A stretch of 64,000 nt of DNA, filler included, from Rhabdomonas costata (lineage: Eukaryota): assembly GCA_019059605.1 (NCBI GenBank). It is 47 parts of 47 records of this genome, joined end to end, with 100 filler letters (N's around TTAATTAATTAA, not from the genome) between each part and the next. Parts side by side here need not be neighbours in the genome. Positions count along the whole stretch, not along the records: positions 61,390 to 62,654 come from JAHMHO010021420.1; 46 more parts are not named here. The stretch is one strand, 5' to 3'. The position numbers and the translations under genes are program-made. The first letter of the stretch is position 1. Every line of letters starts with the position of its first letter. Below, in pieces: positions 17,184-62,654 of the stretch. Below the pieces are notes generated by a model. That model saw nothing but the letters and a program-made list of their open reading frames with translations. It did not search any database and was not told the origin of the DNA.

Positions 17184-17434
17184 CCGTCCCACCAAATGTG
17201 AGCCCCAACCCTTCACTCCAGCTCGAGTTCTGGTCCACGTTAAGTCTCCGGTCTGGTTCGGGAGTGACCATACCGGATGTCACGTGTTGGCTTTCCTCTC
17301 GACTCATGTTTTCTCTATTCGCGAGCCACTGCTGCACTTAGGTCCGTGCCAATAATGCGGCCCATGATCGTGTTGGGCTTCTACAGGAGCTTCCAGTTGG
17401 CGTTACAGTTACAGGAGTTACAGTTCTGAGGGTT

Positions 17435-17647
17435 CTACCAGGTGGACCTATCTAGCCTCTTCAGCCGGCCTTCCGTACCTCCCGACTTGTCGGAGGCCTC
17501 ATCCGAAATGGGGGGGCCCAAAACTTCACCCTGTTCGCTGGGTAACTGCAAAAATCTGAGCGCATCTCTGGCTTTCGCGTGCCCTTGGTCTGCCGCCTGG
17601 CGGTACCACTCCTTCGCCATCGGTATGTTCCTTTCCACCCCAACCCC
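17435..17647 (-). CDS. Sel1-like repeat protein, C-terminal fragment
   Basis: GVERNIPMAKEWYRQAADQGHAKARDAL is a canonical Sel1 repeat. Confidence 0.88.
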   Translation of the reverse strand, partial: GVGVERNIPMAKEWYRQAADQGHAKARDALRFLQLPSEQGEVLGPPISDEASDKSGGTEGRLKRLDRSTW

Positions 17648-20600
17648 NNNNNNNNNNNNNNNNNNNNNNNNNNNNNNNNNNNNNNNNNNNNTTAATTAAT
17701 TAANNNNNNNNNNNNNNNNNNNNNNNNNNNNNNNNNNNNNNNNNNNNGTGGTGTGGGTAGGCAAACAGGCTGAGGGAGGACGGGGTTTGAGGTGTGGTCC
17801 CATGGGCGGCGGTCAAGGCGGTAGGTCTTGTTTAATTTCAACAGTGAACCCCCTTCTCTTCTTTTTTGCCATTCAGTATGGGGATGGTAGAGTTGGGGGC
17901 TCGAGTGGAGTATGTGCAAAGGCAAGCCTGAAGTTCGAACAGGTTTCTATTTCAAGATGCGGGTGACGTTTGGTCCGCTGAGCGAAGCCGAGGTCTGAGG
18001 GGGGGGTTTCCTTTTACCTCTTCCGTTGTTGTTGTTTTTTTGCCCCGAACACAAACATGCACAGCAGGAGGATGAGTACTCCGGGTCACCATTCCGCTCA
18101 GCAAAAGCAAAAAAAAAGTTTCTGGAGGGACAAGACAGAAGAGGGTTTATTCCACATTAATCTGAATCCGGCAAAAAGCGCTTTCGTGCCTCCTGGACGC
18201 ACGAAAAAAAAAAGCGGTTGGAAAACCTGCCCTTAAGCCACGAAAATAGCCCACGTTGTCCAAAGTACCAAAGTCCCCGGGAAATTCGGGAAGAAGCCAA
18301 GTCGGGCAAGTTGCAAACTGCTTCATCCAAGCGGTGATTTTTGACGAGACTCCATCGACACCTGAGCTTTGCACACGAGCTGCTTGTGGAGGCTTTAAAA
18401 TGAAACCCCGCAGCCTCGTCACCTCGCGCCATCTCATTTCCACACATGCCTGTGTGCAAGCGTGGATGCGCCAGCGTTTGCAGCCGCTCCGACACCAATT
18501 CGAAGACAGACTCGCGACTGGACTGGGAACCAAAATGAAGCCATCCATCCCGAACTCATCCAAAAAGTACCTTCGTGGTTAATATGGTCCGTAGACACCA
18601 CAACCACCGACTTGGCCTTGGGGTCGTAGCTGGTGAGCATCGAGCCATCCAGCCCGATATCCACAGAGTGGTACTGAAGCAAAAAGCATTTGCAGAAACG
18701 GCGATGAAAGCATTGTCTTAATGACATCGTGGCAGAGGCCGCGGGTCAGTGCTGTGGCTGTGGCAGGGACGTTTCCTGAAGCCAAACAGTATTTGAGCAA
18801 ACGGCGACGGAAACTTTGTCCAAATGATGTCGTGGCGGACGAGAAGGGCGGTTTGATCTAAAAATGGTTTCAGCGCCGCACAGCGGGTGGCTGAGGCGGA
18901 AATGTCTTCTTGGGGAAGATCAATGGCGAGACACCTCAACGTCGACGCATTGAAGGGGGACGACCCCACACCTTGTCTCACCTTCCGTAGCATAGCGTCC
19001 AAAAAGTTCACCNNNNNNNNNNNNNNNNNNNNNNNNNNNNNNNNNNNNNNNNNNNNTTAATTAATTAANNNNNNNNNNNNNNNNNNNNNNNNNNNNNNNN
19101 NNNNNNNNNNNNGAAACGACACACACACTCACACCACACACCACACACCATGTTGCCGAGCTCCCTCCGCTTTTGCAGATTGACGTGCGAGTAGATGTCC
19201 AGTTTGGGCTGTGAGAAAGTCATGGCATATGAAATATCCCTGAGCCGCCAAAGACGGGAGACAGAACGGCAAACACCCTTGTCCAAACAACATTACAGAA
19301 CTCCATATACAGCCATATACAGCGCTGTCAGAACCTGCCGGGAACACAAATGATTAACTTTCGCTGAAACCAAAAGGAAAAAGAAGACCCGAAACCCATC
19401 AAAAATACTGCAGTGAACACGATATGGCGCCAATTACATCCAGCAGCTCAAAATGCACACCGCGTCGTTTTTGCTCGACCATCTGCCCAATGTTTGCTTG
19501 AACAGTTGCGCAAGGATTCCCGGCTTTTCCGCGGGCTGCAAGACATTTGCCAGCCGTGGAAAGCTGCGGGCAAGCATCGCTTTCTCAGCACCCTGCGCCT
19601 CCCAGCGTGATGTATTTTACTCTACCCTCAAAAACGCTTCGAAGGATTCGGAAACCACCCAATGAAACGGGAAATCTGCAGCCTGAGAATAAATCAGTGG
19701 ATACCACAAAACCACCCTTAAACAACACCGAAAAGCATCGCAGCATATATCAACTGGACTCCATTATCACAACTGCAGCACACCATTATCACATTATTAC
19801 ATTACATTGCTCAGTGGAGGACTCCAAATTCCGAGAGTTCAATGGACTTCAGTATGCCGAACACAGCAATTCAGTGTATAAAACCACAAAGGGAGTGGGG
19901 CGACAATCTGATGGCAGCATGTCTCATCAAGTCCTGACCTGAACTCAAGACAATACTCGGGCATCGAGGACGGAGGTTTAGTGAACAATGCCCAAAAATG
20001 AGCAAAACGGGCCAGAAAAATGAGTCGGGGGTCAATAACAGTGAAAGAGAAATAGTTTCGAAGCTAGATTCATTCTACAGGGTAGCCAATCGTAACTGGA
20101 AGAAAACAAGACGTGACAAGAAATTGCACGCGATGACGCAAATCACTGGCCACTTTTCATGGTGACGTTCCCTTTTCGAATCGAGTTTTTTCAAATTCGT
20201 ACCTTCCGTTAAAGGCAGCAACCGCAAACGGACGCTTCAGCACCCGCCTCCCGCCACTCTAACGCACCGCAATCCCGAGCAGCTTTACGATTCGCAAATT
20301 CGCATAAAAGAAGATCTCCACCTCTAATTCAGTTCCCCCACACTCTGCACAATAAAGCGGTCGACCGACACTCATTANNNNNNNNNNNNNNNNNNNNNNN
20401 NNNNNNNNNNNNNNNNNNNNNTTAATTAATTAANNNNNNNNNNNNNNNNNNNNNNNNNNNNNNNNNNNNNNNNNNNNGGGGGGTTTTCCTTGTGCTGGAG
20501 AGAAGCTGTTTTTAAGGTCCACCCTTGGATTGGCTGGCCTGTACCTTTTTTATTTGACGTTGAGTTGGGCGGGGAGTCCTGTGAACTCCTTGGACCCTCA

Positions 20601-21914
20601 TACACGCCGAGAGAGTGCCGGTTGATCTGTCGGCACAGGGAGGACAATGCAGGGTGAATCGCTTACGATACCCTCGATGTGTGGCAATATCACGTCGTTG
20701 GGTTTACTTTCGCGTTTCGGTTGCACAGAATGTGGGGAGCTTCTTCTGATTGTGGTCGCGATCGTGATTGTTATTCGTGAAAAATAGCGTCCCTCAGAAA
20801 AAGTATTTGCATTTTCGAACAGCTTCCCTTCTTTTCACTTGCTTTGTCAAGATCAGTGAGGCAATGGTTTTGATTTTGCATCTTCTTTTTCGTCTGATGC
20901 TGGGGCTGGGGGTTTGCAACACAAAGGGGTGCGATGCCCTATGCACTCCTCTCCTTTCTTGACTTTGTTGACACGTTGCAGCGTTTTTTGCCCGTGCTTT
21001 TTTTCCTTCCGTGCTACTTTTCGCCACTCTTGCTCAAGAAGGTTGAGATGCCTGTGGCGCCTCACCGGTGGTAGTCTGTGTGTGTGCGCGCGCGGTACGT
21101 GAGTGGGACGTCCTCGTGCGTGTGTACTTGCCGAGGGGTGTCTTCCCCTCTCCTGTCTGTGTGTCTGTCTGTGTGTCTGTCTGCGTGTCTGTCTGTGAGA
21201 GCAAACCCATGTCAGTGCTCGCGAAGATGCTGGTGAACCCCAGCGCTCACGACCACGCGCACAAGCTCGACGTGATTCAGGACCCCAGGCTGAGAACTTG
21301 CCTCACGGTATGCATCCATGCGGGCGTCCTTTTCCCACATTCTCTCGTTCTGGCGTGCAGCCCGACGAGCACGTCTCTAGTCGCAGGCTTCCTCCCCACA
21401 GTGGGGTTCGACGAGAGAAGGCCGCAGTGCAGGAGTTGAGTCTCGGTGGTTCCATGCTGGGATAAAAAACCGCTTTTTAAAAATGTTTGTGTCAGTTGGG
21501 GGAGGGGGTGAGTTGTTGTCTGGATTTTTGAGCTTATGCATGTGGGCGGGGTCAGCACGCCAATATGAGGGGTAGATTCACATTCCCACCCCGCGAAAAA
21601 AAAAACGGAGTACACCGCAGAACGAGCTAACGAGCAGATCCCGGCCCAAAGGGCCTCATCACCCCACACAAAGACCCGGTTTGTTTAACGTTATCATGAG
21701 GGTAATGTGCACCAAAATAAGGGCTGAAATCCCCCACACACANNNNNNNNNNNNNNNNNNNNNNNNNNNNNNNNNNNNNNNNNNNNTTAATTAATTAANN
21801 NNNNNNNNNNNNNNNNNNNNNNNNNNNNNNNNNNNNNNNNNNTACAATCGATCCGGTTGCGAATCAGAACCCCACTCCCCAGAGTAGCATGGGCCAAAAT
21901 CACATTGCAAGAAC

Positions 21915-22973
21915 CTCGATAATTGATGGTGATCCAGTAGGCGTACAGCTTCGCGCAGGCTGTGCGGCACACAAATCCATGTGTGAGACATTTGTGCGTA
22001 TGTGTGTGAGCGTGCGTGGGAAACCCTCCCGCTGGGTTATGTGTGGACAGAGATACATTGTTTCTGTGCATCCGCAGCATGCGCGGGACCCTCGTCTTCT
22101 TCCCCACTTTCCAGTTTGGATAGAGTGAGGAAGAGCCGGCGGCGGCGTTACACCACAGGTGATACATTATCAACAAGGAGAGAAAAACCACGCACGGAGA
22201 AAGATCAGAGCAGCATAAAGCAATGGCGAAAGAATGGCGGAAAGCAACGTGATGTGGAAATGCAAGACCCAACGAACTCCCGCCCACACCGTAGGGAGAG
22301 CGGGGGTAGAAAGGGGTGGTCTCCTTCTGCGGGATCTCCATCACCTGTCCAAACAGCTCCGAAGTCGAGGCCTGAAGGCCACATCAGAAGACAGAGAGAG
22401 AGAGACAGAAAGAGAGACAGAGAGAGAGAGGAAAAGTTACCCCCTATGAAGGGACAAAGGTATGGGCCGTTGCATGCGCATATTGCGCACAATGAAACTA
22501 GTAAAGGTTGGATGCAACATGGTACACAGCACGCAAGGGTGCCTTTCCACCAAGATACTGCTTGCGCCTGTCCACTTGTCCCCCCGCTCTTATATAGGCA
22601 AAGCACCTTCGAAGATATCTCCCGGTGTTTCGAATGAGTGAATTGCAAGTACAAAAGTATTGACGAAAGCTTTGAACTGGTCCCTGCAGCAGCACAGGAA
22701 AGCCCAACGAATCAACGCACCCCTGGCACACATTTGGTACGAGTCCCCAAAACAACCAAGGCTCAACCAAAGCGGCATTCCTCACCTCCTCTTGCAATCT
22801 GGCACGCAATTTAAAACACACACTGTGGTCGCGCAGCGACACCTGATAGAACTTGACCTTGTGCGTCATCCCGGAGGCTTTGATCGCGTCGAGCATCTTC
22901 AGAACGCCCAACCCGTCCGCAGATCCGGTGTACTCGGGCAGCTCAAACGAGACCTTGACGTGGCTCTGGGCAG
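21915..22973 (-). CDS. GMDS: GDP-mannose 4,6-dehydratase, three exons (22973-22843, 22371-22290, 21959-21915)
   Basis: [16 protein letters not shown]...[12 protein letters not shown]...[28 protein letters not shown]; catalytic T-x-E and YxxxK motifs; both introns GT-AG and in phase. Confidence 0.97.
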
Positions 22974-25433
22974 CTGAGAAAAGCGAAAACTAAAAGAAAT
23001 CCTTAGCACTTACGCTGAAATCTAAGAGCCATATTAAACCATCTCCGTATCCAAGTGTTGATACCCTGTCTGCGCTTCTCGGACCCTCTCACCCCCACAA
23101 CCCCCCCNNNNNNNNNNNNNNNNNNNNNNNNNNNNNNNNNNNNNNNNNNNNTTAATTAATTAANNNNNNNNNNNNNNNNNNNNNNNNNNNNNNNNNNNNN
23201 NNNNNNNGAAAAACGCCAGGGAAGGGAAGGGGAAAGCAAACAGGAGGTTCCACGTCACAGAGGTGGGGCATGCACATGCGCGTAATGCGTAGCTCGAACC
23301 ACGCACCACACAAAGACAAAATACAGAGGAAGGTAGAGGAGTGTATGCAATACTGAGAAAGAAAAAAAGGAACAGGTCCAGAAAAGCGCACATCAAAAAC
23401 GGAGCCATTTGAGCATCGAACAATTAGAAGGATCAGTTGACCGGAGGAATTTCGGCTTGGCAGCGGTACTTGTACACGTACACTATTGTTCGAAGTTCCG
23501 ATGAAGGGGGAGAATATCGATTATCGATATCCAAAGCAAAGTTGCAGCGTTTTCCCTTTCTGCCATCACGAGCTCGATAAAGCAGAACAGACCATCCAGA
23601 AACAAAGGCATCGACAGAAATTTTCCCCTTCAGAATCAAACTGGTAAGCAAGCAAGGATCACGCGAGCCAAAGCACGAGTGAACAAGGGCGCAGGGCAGG
23701 TGACATTCACATATTCACACATACACAATTTCCTGCAGAACGCAGAACGCGTGTCCATGCAGATTCAAACAATGGCTCCTGCTTGGGTCTCAGACAATCT
23801 TCTTCACCGATGGAGAAGAAGCTGGGGCCATCTGAGACTCCATCGTGTGGCGAGGAGATCTACACATCCCACATACCAAAAACGGGGCTCGCAGATACGC
23901 ACGTCATTTTCAAAAAAAAATGCGTGAACCAACATCCCGGCACAAAATGACGGGAAGGGCGGGGAAGGGGGGGCTGCGTGTTCAAGTAGTGAACGATTCT
24001 CCGTCATGAGCACAGAGTCAACCGAAAAAAATGGATAGATAGAAATGGGCTTCACCAGGCGCGAGTATCTGGATCAAATTCGACTGCAATGAATGGTGTC
24101 ACCCATTCCCAAGTTCTTCCAAACTTACACGACGCCCTTCCCAGGCGGCACCCCTCTGACCCCGAAAAAACAATGCAAAGGACACTTGCAGGGCAAACCT
24201 CAGCAAAAGGGGGCATTCCGACTGGTGCGGCGAGAAGTCGTAGAAGATCACACAGTCAAAGTCCTCTGAGTCACACACACATACACACACGTACAACCTT
24301 GCACCGACCCACACAAGCACAGAAGGGTATAAAATGCACAACAGATAAAGCACTGTAACACTTGGGATCGGTTTGTGTGGGGCAAATCATCTTGCATAGC
24401 CGCCCGGCAAATGGCGTAAACTTTTAAGAGACAACACAGATCCATCCTCATGGAGGTGTAGCCAACCCCAACNNNNNNNNNNNNNNNNNNNNNNNNNNNN
24501 NNNNNNNNNNNNNNNNTTAATTAATTAANNNNNNNNNNNNNNNNNNNNNNNNNNNNNNNNNNNNNNNNNNNNGTCGGTGGTTGTGTCCCAAAATTGACCC
24601 ACGAGGAAGAGGGGGTGAAGATGCTTAATTAACGTTAGCTCCACCCGGAAACTGAGAGAATATTCCGTGACATTTTGATCTGAAGTCTTTGTGCGCTATA
24701 TTTGGGCCGCTGGTCTCGGATGGGTGTCTCTGAGTAGAGGTGCATAAACGACAGCTGGCAGTATAGCTTGGCAAACAGAAGGGGTTGCGCACAGACTTTT
24801 CCGCGTACAGGCTGCCATTTGCCCCAATCCAGCGTCCTATTGGGAACACGGTACAGACGACGGAAGGTTTAGACCGTGAACCTGAGTTCAGTCCATGTGA
24901 CAAAAAGTCTCACTTCACGGTGGAGCCCACTATATATATGCCCCTTTAGGATCAGTTTATTGAAAGTTCCGGCAGTGATGCAGGGGATCATTGCAGGCAA
25001 CGGCGCAGTGCTGGAACATACATGAACACGGGGGGTGCGTGGAAAAGGAAGGGAAAAGGAGGAAACGAATCAGGGAACTGCGATACGGGCGTAAGGCACT
25101 ATAAGACTAAAAGTATCCAAAGTTGGGATTCGAGAAAACCCGGAAACGGCATGCGGTCTAGAAATAGAGAGAGGTGGGCGTAACGGGGGTGAGACCTCGG
25201 AGTGGGGAGGAACGGGAGAAGCACCACAAGAGCAGGATGATAATTGCGGGAAAATTGTGTGCGTGCGTCGGCGGAGCATCGGAAGAGAACGGAGAGGAAC
25301 AAAGATGAGTTTATTTTGAGTTTTTGTTTAGTATTGTTTTTAAGGAGCCTTTTTGTGCCTACTGCACATGTCTTCGGTGCTTGTCCCCCAAATTCATTAC
25401 GATCATGACCTGACCCCCCCTCCCCTCGAACAG

Positions 25434-47184: not shown

Positions 47185-49131
47185 TAACGCGAAGAACGCA
47201 AGGGCCCGCTGAAAGAGTCTGACGGCCGATGTTCAAAATTGCTGTCCGTGGCATTGCCCCTGAAGCAATTCATTGCACATGGACATGTCGCAATGAACCC
47301 CGAGACTATCTCATCTCGGTTGAGACCCTTCGCATTAAAATTCTGGATTGTTGTTGGAGCCCAGTAACTGTGAATGGAACTGGGTATGTACAAGAGCGCG
47401 TGTAGCGAAGTACATTTCGTGTGAAATCATTCTCGCATATCCCCAAGCGCAACGGAGGGCATAATGACGAAACCAACAACGTATGTATAAAAACCCACAT
47501 GCCTCTATACCCGGGGGCCCAGACAAATGGCTCTCGGTCGGAAGAAACAAAGCAAGAATAGAGAATCCCCCGGACACCACCTGCAGCACCCTGCCGTGGA
47601 CCTCCGTCCGCCCGCCACGCAGCAGCTGCACCACCACGCGGCACCCGTTTGGGTCNNNNNNNNNNNNNNNNNNNNNNNNNNNNNNNNNNNNNNNNNNNNT
47701 TAATTAATTAANNNNNNNNNNNNNNNNNNNNNNNNNNNNNNNNNNNNNNNNNNNNGGGGGGGTTGTTCGAGAAGTGCACTCTGTGTGGGTGTGGCCCTGA
47801 AACCAATGTCCTGGCGTACTGGTTCCGTGCTTCCCGTGCGCCAGGCGGGACCAACGTCACCCAGCTGTGGTACCCCAGCAACTCCAGCAAGGACTGCATC
47901 CCTGGACGAGGCTCGCCCTGGGTGGACATCATCCTCCGGCCGAAGCCCTTGTGGGCCCTGCTCGCTCGGGCGATGGATGCGGTGATTGAAAACAAGAAGG
48001 CTCGGCCCATGCCGTTTCACTTTTATCCTAACCGGCTGTGGGATGCCCCGAGGTGAGAGACAGGCCACGATGGGATCAAAGTGATAAGTAGTGCCGAGCC
48101 CGGGCGCGAGCGAACGGCTGCGGCTCAGCTGGGTTTTTGAAGCACTCAGGCCAGAGCGATATCAGCTGGAAACAGGCTTCTTTCGAATGCTAGTGTTTAC
48201 AATCTGTCAGTCGGTATTGTTTGGGGCGACTTTTTTTTTGCGTGACAGCTGTTCGTGTCCACTGGGGAACGAGAACCCAGGTGGTGGGTTTTAGTAAGAG
48301 GTTTCTTTAAGTAGGCTAACACCTTCAAATGCACTCGGAGAGCAAAACAATTCTTGTTGTCCTTTATGCTTTGATGCCATTGACGGACCAGATGTCTGTG
48401 CATGTAACTCCCGGATATTGGGCCAGAATTTGGGTGGTGTGGTTGTTGATGTTGAGGTTGTTGACCCTGCCTACTCTCGCAGCGGACGCGCTTTGGTGAC
48501 ACTGTATTGGGGCTGAAGCTTTTTCGGCCATAATAAACACTCTGTTCTGAGTGGATGTTGTCCCGGTGATTGCTGGCTGCACTCCAATGGAGAGTCCAGC
48601 CTCCGCTGCAGCAGTGGAGCCGCCTCCCCTCGTGGATGAGGATCCTTTTATGATTCCGCCATCATTGTACCACAAGTACCTTGCCCTGTTTGAGCGGCAC
48701 CGGGAGCAGCCTCTATGGATTTCCAGTATGCCGCTGCACGGCGAGGGATTCGGGAAAAGCGTCGCTCTGTAGTTCTTCCGGATTGTGTCTGTGTGTGTGG
48801 CAGCCAGGACGGCTTGCAGGTTGTGCACCGTTCTGGATTTGTGGTTTGATTTCCGCTTTTTGCGAGTTGTTTGCGAGTCCCCCCACCCCGTGATTCTTTG
48901 TTTCTGCTGTCCGTTCCATCCTGCTTGCGGCTTATTTGCATGGTTTTGTGTTTCCCCTTCACCAATGCTTCGTGCCGTTAATCGTTCACTCGCTTGCTGC
49001 GAGTGTTCCACACAAACCCNNNNNNNNNNNNNNNNNNNNNNNNNNNNNNNNNNNNNNNNNNNNTTAATTAATTAANNNNNNNNNNNNNNNNNNNNNNNNN
49101 NNNNNNNNNNNNNNNNNNNGGGTGTGGGGGT

Positions 49132-50383
49132 AGATTAAAATATTTAGGTGATTCAGTAATTCGTTTATTATTATCTGAATATTTATATTGGAGATATGAA
49201 GATCAAGATGAAGGATTTCTAACAAGTCTAAGAATAAAATTAGAAAATGGTATTATGTTATCTAAAATATCACAATCATTAAATTTACATGAATATGTTT
49301 TAGTTGGTGATTGTGCACAAGAAGATACTGACATTGTTTATAAATCAAATTATAAAACAATTATGAGTGAAAGTGTAAAAATTCTAATTGGTGTATTATA
49401 TATTGATAAAAAATTAGATGTATGTAGAACATTATTTATAAATATAATAGAAGATGAATTTGATATTGCTGATATATTATATAATAACATAAATTACAAA
49501 GATAAATTATTACAATATTATCATAAAATGAAATGGAATGATCCAATTTATATCGTAGTTGAAAATTCAATAAATAATTATTCACATGAATTTGTAATTG
49601 GTGTACAAAATGGAATCGATAAAACAATTATTAGTTTAGGAACAGGTACAAGTAAATTAAATGCTGAACAAGAAGCTGCAAAAAATGCATTACAATATTA
49701 TGATGTTGATTATACATCATCTCAAGTTATACAAACTAAAACTGATCATGATATAAATGAAATTATACCACATTTATTAAATATGAAAAATATACATATA
49801 ACAGAAGAATATATAATAAATTTATTTAAAACATATAGTGAAGATATTGAAATTGATGATTTACATTTATATCAAATAGCAATGACACATAATTCGTATA
49901 CACATAATATTAAAAAATTAAACATAGTAAAAAAATTCATTAAAAATACATTAATTGTTCCTTCTAAACTAAAATCAGTAATACCATTACAGAAACAATC
50001 ATATGAAAGATTAGAATTCTTAGGTGATTCTGTATTACGTCTAATTTTATCAGAATATATATATTTAAGATATAGTGAAAGTAATGAAGGATTTATGACA
50101 AAATTACGAACAAATATTGAAAATAATAAAATATTGAATATTTTAACAAAAAAAATAAATTTACATAATTATTTATTAATCTCTAAAATAGAAGAACAAC
50201 ATTGTGGACGTACTGGAAAAATAGATATATTAGGTGATTTATTTGAATCTTTTTTAGGTGCTACTTATATTAATACATCATATGATACATCATATAAATT
50301 TGTTAAAGAAATATACGAAAAAGAAATAGATTTTGCATCTATCATTTATAATGATACAAATTATAAAGATCAATTATTAAGAT
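49132..50383 (+). CDS. Tandem ribonuclease III (degenerate RNase III - dsRBD - intact RNase III - start of second dsRBD), giant-virus (Mimiviridae-like) type; truncated at both ends
   Basis: Frame is open from contig start: RLKYLGDS...; dsRBD NYKDKLLQ...GTGTSKLNAEQEAAKNAL; second domain SYERLEFLGDS...ILGDLFESFLGA; then NYKDQLLR; intronless and about 20% GC by eye. Confidence 0.92.
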
Positions 50384-61285: not shown

Positions 61286-61391
61286 CAAANNNNNNNNNNN
61301 NNNNNNNNNNNNNNNNNNNNNNNNNNNNNNNNNTTAATTAATTAANNNNNNNNNNNNNNNNNNNNNNNNNNNNNNNNNNNNNNNNNNNNGG

Positions 61392-62654
61392 TCAAACTTT
61401 AACGGTCAAATTCCTTTTACATTTAAAACACCAACGAATAAATGGTGCAAGCCTAGAGAATGCTTTTTAGCTGTAAAACTTCGAATTGATCAAGTAGATG
61501 CTTCAGGTGTTCATAGTCCTCTTCAAGCTGTTTCTGGTGCTGGAACACCCTACATTTCCAAAAATCCCGTCTCTCTGCTCTTCTCCACTGGGAAAGTCTT
61601 AGTCAATGATAAGATGATATCCAATATGAACGAATTGCCTGCCACGAATACATTATTTCGTACAATTTATGATACAAAGAGCATGCAAGAAACGATAGAA
61701 TCAACTAATCCAATTTTGCCACAATCTCTGACTGACACTGTTAGCAATACAGCACGTCTTGCTTATGCTAATAAATGTCAGCTTCTATTAAATACGTTTC
61801 AAGAGCAGACTTTAACTTGGTCTTTACCATTTCCACTCTTTCAATCTAATGAATGGATTCCGCCACATACTAAAGTAGAAATTGATTTTAATGTAAACAC
61901 GAATTGGATAAATGAGATCTTATCTGTAGTTGGGACGTTTCCAGCTGGTGGTGTAGTTCCTTTATCATCAACTGGTACAAATTCCACTGTATCGAGCGTC
62001 GGAATAGGTGTGGACGATATCAGTCTTTGGCTTTATTATGTTACAGATGTAACACCTGTAAATATGGTTCATGAAATTCATCTTAAACAGTACTTTTCTC
62101 AAGTACATACGATTACATCTAATAATGAAGCATTCACATTGACACTTCCAAATGGAGGACGTAACATTACTCATATTTTAGCTTGCTTCTTACAAACTGG
62201 TAGGTCTGGAACTGTAAAAAAATCATCTAATGATTTTAGCTCTGGTTTTACAAATGCTGCAACAGAGGCTAAAATTACAACTGATGCTACAACTAAGCTT
62301 CAAATGATTAGATTCCAACTTGATAAAACATACCCAAATCCTGATTATAACTTATGTTTTGATTCATCTAAAAAAGATTCTATAGACGTGGGTAGAGCAT
62401 TCTACGATTTCATTAATAATGCTGATGCTAAATTTGATCGTAGTGGGAATGTTGTATCTATTCAACAATGGATTAATGAACCTATTTTCTGTTTTAAGGT
62501 AAATTCTGATGCTACTACTTATCACGAATCACTTCAAGTATATATTACGTTAGATTCTGGTTACACACCTGCTACGACTTCTTCTCAACTTTTGGTAGTA
62601 GCATTGTATGATGAAACATTGCGGCTACATTTCGATACAACATTCCCACAAACC
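61392..62654 (+). CDS. Putative double-jelly-roll major capsid protein of a Polinton/Maverick or Polinton-like virus (nearly complete, both ends cut)
   Basis: Frame open from 61392: NFNGQIPFTF...WCKPRECFLAVKLRI; NPVSLLFSTGKVLVNDKMIS; PLFQSNEWIPPHTKVEIDF; VDDISLWL; YPNPDYNLCF; RAFYDF; VSIQQWINEPIFCFKV; LLVVALYDETLRL. Motif order fits Polinton-type capsids; intronless and AT-richer than host contigs. Confidence 0.75.

Follow-up and report, generated by a model that had tools for sequence, protein, structure and literature searches.

Introduction

Polintons (also called Mavericks), Polinton-like viruses (PLVs) and mavirus-type virophages (Maveriviricetes) are the described systems closest to the gene analysed in this work, a truncated major capsid protein (MCP) gene lying near the end of a 64-kb stretch of DNA (hereafter, the window) from the Rhabdomonas costata assembly GCA_019059605.1. 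In PMC8502044, a family B DNA polymerase (PolB) and a retrovirus-like integrase (rve) are given as hallmark genes of Polintons/Mavericks, and phospholipase A2 (PLA2)-like virion genes are noted as known earlier in Polintons and Alpha adintoviruses. The PLVs of Yutin et al. (2015; PgVV and TVS groups) are portrayed in the abstract of that paper (PMC4642659) as small double-stranded DNA (dsDNA) elements of metagenomes and of protist and algal assemblies; their minimal morphogenetic module consists of MCP, minor capsid protein and ATPase and, one exception aside, they are described there as devoid of an rve integrase and a protease. Finally, Bellas et al. 2023 (PMC10120064) report that 462 of the 1352 protist assemblies they searched contain endogenous MCPs, with more than 35,000 hits that form 73 clusters; divergent MCPs were confirmed by ColabFold and Foldseek, the approach also followed here. 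The authors add that the insertions often differ from the host in GC content and that repeats break short-read assemblies.

We analysed the protein encoded by the contig at positions 61390–62654 of the window (JAHMHO010021420.1), together with its metagenomic relatives, and consider it likely that the contig contains some 95% of an MCP gene that belongs to a Polinton/Maverick-type virus (Preplasmiviricota) with a small dsDNA genome. By its predicted fold, the window protein shares a double jelly-roll (DJR) MCP with Polintons/Mavericks and the adintovirus-like "MELD" viruses. The longest metagenomic contig encoding a close relative (L004) also shares with them a penton, an rve integrase, a PLA2-like virion protein and a size of about 19 kb and, as candidates, a packaging ATPase, an adenain-like protease and a protein-primed family B polymerase (pPolB) with an Endonuclease VII/HNH-like insert. 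They differ in that (i) the window MCP has no detectable sequence similarity to named members, with 11–13% identity in structural alignments (BFVD, a set of predicted viral structures), (ii) no terminal inverted repeats (TIRs) were found on L004, and (iii) L004 has an extra papain-family (C1) protease besides the adenain-like candidate.

Mavirus-type virophages are alike in MCP fold and, as far as L004 is concerned, in the penton fold, the pPolB candidate and the rve integrase; we also take the size and GC content of L004 to be like those of mavirus. In contrast, identity to mavirus in structural alignments is 9–12%, and the MCPs of the family (about 440 residues in a short form and about 546 in a long form) can be called much shorter, the solved mavirus chains having 503–515 residues without the C-terminal domain. 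As for PLVs, L004 encodes an rve integrase and a C1 protease, both recognised by Pfam, which places it outside the group as delimited by Yutin et al. (2015), whereas under wider current use the name PLV would still apply. Since PolB plus rve is a hallmark of Polintons, which also have PLA2-like genes, and PLVs are mostly without rve and protease, the relatives of the window gene are best called Polinton/Maverick-type viruses. As with the endogenous MCPs of protists characterised by Bellas et al. 2023, the DJR MCP of the window is an isolated one, found in a fragmented eukaryotic assembly on a contig that is short and shifted towards AT; it thus adds another case to those they describe.

Results

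The AlphaFold2 (AF2) model of the window protein, built on a 70-sequence alignment, has a mean predicted local distance difference test (pLDDT) score of 92.9 and a predicted template modelling (pTM) score of 0.92, and folds into two successive beta-sandwiches within a single chain, each of them a jelly roll whose fifth strand is followed by a helix. In this model, the N-terminal jelly roll comprises residues ~1–220 (61392–62051, plus strand; boundary approximate, from the secondary-structure string), with strands at residues 6–12, 25–35, 51–55, 64–71, 74–79, 138–144, 161–168, 177–181, 187–190 and 202–213 and a helix at 82–93. The C-terminal jelly roll comprises residues ~221–416 (62052–62639, plus strand; boundary likewise approximate), with strands at 226–240, 245–251, 259–268, 303–309, 365–369, 380–387 and 398–413 and a helix at 333–343.

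Structural comparison gave a uniform picture. Foldseek against the PDB returned 223 matches at E ≤ 0.001 and, among the matches listed, all are DJR capsid proteins; those of Singapore grouper iridovirus (SGIV, E 1.9e-16), Sputnik (4.9e-15), mavirus (4e-12), Paramecium bursaria Chlorella virus 1 (PBCV-1), Emiliania huxleyi virus 201 (EhV-201), PRD1 and African swine fever virus (ASFV; p72) span an E range from 1.9e-16 to 5e-10. The 50 entries retrieved with VIA-align (Z 22.2 to 12.5) are, every one, DJR capsid or scaffold proteins, and each alignment covers model residues 1 to ~415; Faustovirus scored highest (Z 22.2; root-mean-square deviation 3.8, 335 residues aligned), followed by PBCV-1 (22.0), SGIV (20.4) and Sputnik (19.6), while mavirus (18.5), PRD1 (~14), Sulfolobus turreted icosahedral virus (STIV; 13) and the adenovirus hexon (12.9) scored lower. 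Among the predicted viral structures of BFVD, a protein of "MELD virus sp." was the best match (2.1e-17); next came capsids of virophages, the capsid protein of an adintovirus and numerous capsids of giant viruses. The nearest protein-language-model clusters of the window protein in the Atlas are viral, one of them with Capsid_N on 24% of its members. By its predicted fold, then, the window protein is a DJR major capsid protein of the PRD1-adenovirus lineage (Bamfordvirae). A previous reading of the window, made from the sequence alone (the sequence-only reading), had called this gene a Polinton- or PLV-type capsid gene partly from its alternating beta-strand pattern, and had fixed beforehand, as findings that would speak against it, a fold other than DJR or a match to a cellular protein family. 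The model is indeed beta-rich and its fold DJR, and no cellular family was matched in the Pfam or PDB searches.

As the fold alone cannot tell Polinton-type viruses, virophages and giant viruses apart, whereas the gene context of close relatives can, we examined metagenome contigs, in which 15 loci encode relatives of the window MCP, the close ones being 66–75% identical and embedded in a conserved gene block. L004, the longest locus, is 19,042 nt long, has 30% GC and about 20 densely packed open reading frames (ORFs), and encodes an MCP 73% identical to that of the window; the gene order around it is ATPase (minus strand), a 328-residue lysine-rich protein, MCP, an 83-residue basic protein, a 149-residue protein, the C1 protease and an HNH endonuclease. 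When 19 L004 proteins were used as tblastn queries against the other loci, the MCP was found on all 14 and at least one neighbouring gene on 12 of them (the exceptions being L010 and L011).

Several L004 genes could be assigned from domain matches or predicted structure. The 264-residue penton protein (L004 3938–4732), modelled with AF2 from 21 homologues (pLDDT 84.4), matches in its predicted fold the mavirus penton (best, E 3.3e-10), the adenovirus penton base and the Sputnik penton. The rve integrase (17396–18415) matches PF00665 above cut-off (E 2e-12). Between the penton and ATPase genes lies a gene for a parvovirus-type PLA2-like protein (4754–5479; PF08398, E 2.1e-08) with YLGPGT and HD..Y strings, and Pfam also recognises the C1 protease (10379–11125; E 7e-08) and the HNH endonuclease. 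Other products are candidates by motif. The putative packaging ATPase (223 residues; 5862–6533, minus strand) has Walker A- and B-like strings (AGTNQGKT and FILED) and a weak terminase match in PHROG (9e-4). Directly downstream of the MCP gene, the 149-residue protein (9684–10133) has the series H-W...D...Q...C-G, which we take to be adenain/Ulp1-like; the H-W, D, Q and C-G positions are conserved in four of six aligned sequences, namely those that reach that far, and the pattern is kept in L002, L003 and L009. Ferritins, the sole PDB profile matches of this protein (best E 0.005), were judged spurious. The putative pPolB (1376 residues) has strings in the order of the Exo I–III and Pol A–C motif series (YADFES, HNGKGYD, YLQTD, DANNLYG, KIKNNGVFGK and FSDTDS), as well as an Endonuclease VII-like insert (Pfam E 0.0011); its look-alike clusters in the Atlas, which groups proteins by protein-language-model similarity, carry DNA_pol_B_2 (PF03175, on 18–27% of members) and Endonuclease_7. 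Neither this polymerase candidate nor the ATPase candidate had a PDB sequence match or a useful NCBIfam match. The partner genes that the sequence-only reading had proposed were thus recovered on L004, the penton by fold, rve by Pfam and the ATPase, protease and pPolB by motifs only; none was found in the window.

The window itself is made of 47 contigs of 1246–1270 nt each, joined at 46 N-run/TTAATTAATTAA spacers, so that pieces lying side by side are not genomic neighbours and arguments from context across a spacer are invalid. The piece at 61390–62654 (1265 nt, 35.4% GC, no strand assigned) is bounded by N runs and spacer on each side; the capsid "gene" is therefore one whole small contig, without element or host flank. 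Its open frame (61392–62654, plus strand) has 421 stop-free codons, close to the 420 or so read earlier, is truncated at both ends and covers about 95% of a short-form MCP. Stops number 22–53 in the other five frames; given the composition of the contig, a run of 421 codons free of stops has a chance probability of about 2e-13. The first ATG in frame (Met75; 61614–61616, plus strand) is internal to the conserved protein, the real start lying beyond the contig end; the ORF listed for this piece begins at this ATG, which accounts for the 74 codons by which the sequence-only reading had extended it. Compared with the 435-residue homologue P0010, the fragment lacks about 19 N-terminal and 10 C-terminal residues. 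The frame is colinear with the short-form homologues in the alignment, without any intron, in line with the intronless gene previously described.

Within the window protein, the motifs GQIPF (residues 5–9), WCKP (18–21), LAVKLRI (26–32), VLVNDKMI (69–76) and LLVVALY (400–406) occur in the order that the sequence-only reading had given for Polinton and PLV capsids, and all five are largely conserved across the family of the window protein. In an 18-sequence alignment (A1), 95 columns are invariant, all of them kept in the window copy, as follows by construction. Comparison of the window gene with six relatives gave proportions of nonsynonymous differences (pN) of 0.19–0.32 against saturated synonymous ones (pS, 0.74–0.81), which points to strong purifying selection on the capsid protein across its divergence from these relatives.

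At the level of sequence, the window protein is an orphan. It matched no Pfam and no PHROG family even at E ≤ 10; phmmer against the PDB gave two chance matches (E 0.1 and 0.28), and a PDB profile search with the 70-sequence alignment a single one (E 2.2). No match was found by tblastn in 50,697 "phages" records, and no relative among IMG/VR viral contigs (queries P0003 and alignment A1) or GTDB genome contigs. On the other hand, 32 proteins among 4886 candidates were homologues at E ≤ 0.001, the best being 72–74% identical, and an exhaustive metagenome search yielded 163 representative clusters (50% identity) at E ≤ 0.001, 77 of them at ≤ 1e-10 and 18 at ≤ 1e-30. The suggestion that the gene may belong to a divergent capsid lineage holds only in relative terms, the family having no Pfam model but many relatives in public metagenomes.

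Full-length members come in a short form of 435–458 residues, the type of the window copy, and a long form of 511–552 residues. The difference is due to an extra stretch of about 100–110 residues, rich in T, S, A, I and N, that long forms have and short forms lack at a single site, corresponding in alignment A1 to V117/S118 of the window protein (61740–61745, plus strand). In the model, this site falls after the helix that follows strand 74–79 in the first jelly roll, and the insertion is probably an outward-facing surface "tower" loop of that domain, in which case the window copy would be towerless. Short- and long-form MCPs retain the same neighbouring genes, as seen around the long-form gene of L004 (7668–9320).

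Other pieces of the window show what the capsid contig was assembled with. The N-terminal region 1 of a dynein heavy chain fills a whole contig (54574–55833; Pfam E 1.2e-119), so the assembly is eukaryotic, and PCI and ankyrin domains are encoded elsewhere in the window. At 21843–23107 (minus strand), segments 83–128 and 125–156 of the GDP-mannose 4,6-dehydratase profile lie in two frames; consecutive segments in different frames of one strand indicate an intron-split host gene, unlike the capsid frame.

One more contig stands out by a foreign composition. The piece at 49120–50383 has 21.0% GC, with 5.7% GC at third codon positions (GC3), and one open frame of 421 codons that encodes an RNase III, a dsRNA-binding domain and a second RNase III. 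Its best relatives (49–55% identical, 553–640 residues) are encoded on metagenomic contigs as long as 490 kb; overall, relatives were found on contigs of 100 kb to 1.3 Mb, the distant ones on those of up to 1.3 Mb, one being labelled "viral metagenome", and one cluster of relatives is named "ribonuclease III". This contig may come from a giant virus or from another very AT-rich organism in the sample.

Two further observations concern L004. It combines two different cysteine-protease candidates, the C1 protease and the 149-residue adenain-like protein, within one element. In addition, a 1245-residue protein (153–3890, minus strand) with internal DNA repeats of 63 nt and 159 nt matches only PHROGs of unknown function, and may be a virion fibre or adhesin.

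Discussion

Taken together, the predicted DJR fold and the virion genes that accompany a 73%-identical MCP on L004 support the Polinton-type capsid gene that had been proposed from the sequence. In a virus of this kind, judging from solved homologues, three copies of the capsid protein would form a pseudo-hexagonal (trimeric) capsomer, and the capsomers, together with pentons at the vertices, would build an icosahedral shell. An FtsK/A32-like ATPase would pack the DNA into this shell and an adenain-like protease would mature it, while the pPolB would replicate the genome and the rve integrase would integrate it into the DNA of the host.

Several observations weigh against this interpretation. 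The MCP is the only element gene in the window, since the other 18 L004 proteins matched no other window piece by tblastn and Pfam detected no viral hallmark family among the 83 other window ORFs of at least 120 residues; the remaining genes of the element are known solely from relatives about 73% identical in MCP. Gene modules of Polinton-type viruses are freely exchanged, so the replication and integration genes that go with the window copy may differ from those of L004. On L004 itself, the ATPase, the 149-residue protease and the polymerase are candidates assigned by motifs: the protease has neither Pfam nor PDB support, and the polymerase had no match to the Pfam DNA_pol_B_2 model (PF03175) at E ≤ 5. 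The search for TIRs on L004 returned only chance-length matches of 9–14 nt, and its longest inverted pairs are internal and 71–84% complementary. Besides, the last ~180 nt of the contig (18861–19042), just past the rve gene, jump from 13–33% to about 48% GC; this end may be a junction with cellular DNA, a distinct terminal sequence or an incomplete contig end. Finally, the named MCPs were compared with the model by structure alone, and the fold scores do not separate capsids of Polintons, PLVs and virophages from those of giant viruses.

The origin of the contig is a separate matter. It could be derived from a virus of another organism present in the culture or sample (prey, a co-cultured alga or environmental carry-over) that was merely co-assembled, a serious possibility to which we nonetheless give clearly less than an even chance. 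The lower GC content that had been noted earlier is confirmed, 35.4% against 45.7–59.8% in 45 of the 46 other pieces (the exception being the RNase III contig), and GC3 of the capsid frame is 22.6% against 57–66% in three long ORFs of host-like pieces. The composition of the gene agrees with that of its virus relatives and not with that of the co-assembled eukaryote. The contig has no host flank; its relatives all come from metagenomes, one of them in a mis-binned "Alphaproteobacteria" metagenome-assembled genome; and a second foreign-looking contig, with 21% GC, implies that the assembly does not stem from one genome only. However, the survey of protist draft assemblies (PMC10120064) describes MCP genes in 462 out of 1352, with insertions often differing from the host in GC and short-read assemblies broken by repeats, and a short, AT-rich contig without flanks is therefore equally expected of an endogenous copy. 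With a virus-like, non-host composition, the gene was either inserted recently, belongs to a virus that has not integrated, or stems from a different organism in the sample; all three fit the unameliorated composition equally well.

Another alternative keeps the same gene but assigns it to a virophage-like parasite of a giant virus, with a lifestyle like that of Maveriviricetes, instead of to a Polinton-type virus that is autonomous; its replication would then take place in the giant-virus factory, and it might protect the host population. L004 resembles mavirus in its gene set and in its size and composition (19 kb, 30% GC), the mavirus penton is the best structural match of the L004 penton, the MCP model aligns with those of Sputnik and mavirus at Z 19.6 and 18.5, and the contig with 21% GC would be consistent with the presence of a giant virus in that sample. 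Even so, we find this alternative rather unlikely. Identity to the Sputnik and mavirus MCPs is 9–14% and giant-virus capsids score equally well or better, so that the fold provides no special link to virophages, and lifestyle cannot be read from sequence. An extended scenario with three partners, i.e. the eukaryotic host, a very AT-rich giant virus and a Polinton-type element acting as a virophage-like parasite or host-carried defence, whose MCPs would form an unnamed lineage with short and towered forms, is conceivable, although we regard it as quite improbable.

We consider it very improbable that the gene, instead of belonging to a small Polinton-type element, encodes the capsid protein of a free or endogenised giant virus (Nucleocytoviricota). 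Faustovirus (22.2) and PBCV-1 (22.0) do give the top VIA-align scores, and 3 of the 70 family members weakly touch PF16903, the Capsid_N model of nucleocytoplasmic large DNA viruses (NCLDV; best E 0.011). One of the nearest Atlas clusters is labelled Nucleocytoviricota, on the basis of just four members of known phylum. In contrast, the window protein matched neither NCLDV capsid model in Pfam (Capsid_N or Capsid_NCLDV) at E ≤ 10, Z gaps of 2–3 among DJR capsids are not discriminating, and the sole long contig to encode a close relative is a dense 19-kb element with rve and penton genes, the short gene block of which is repeated on 12 of the other 14 loci. The single gene fragment and the lack of other viral genes in the window would speak for a host gene that derives from a capsid gene and is now domesticated or in decay, without any virus; this reading deserves hardly any credence in view of the 421 stop-free codons, the retention (by construction) of all 95 invariant A1 columns, the unameliorated composition and the absence of introns from a gene co-assembled with intron-split host genes such as that for GDP-mannose dehydratase.

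The interpretation as a Polinton/Maverick-type capsid gene therefore remains the one we favour, with a restriction as to its state. The sequence-only reading had taken the intact frame to suggest a recent or active element. The frame is stop-free, as described, within the fragment, but it is truncated at both contig ends, so that "intact" can mean nothing beyond this; moreover, purifying selection is visible only over a long divergence, and recency or activity was not borne out.

Altogether, Polinton-type viruses are known to be pervasive in protist genomes and cultures, and our results extend this picture by one eukaryotic assembly and by an MCP family that has no Pfam model. The contig at 61390–62654 should be kept out of the host gene annotation, and the assembly merits a check for complete elements by long reads or read mapping; the 70-sequence MCP alignment, the high-confidence model and the 19-kb relative constitute a ready probe set with which to look for the remainder of the element. 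Should the sample contain a giant virus as well, the strain could serve as an experimental host-virus-virophage system.

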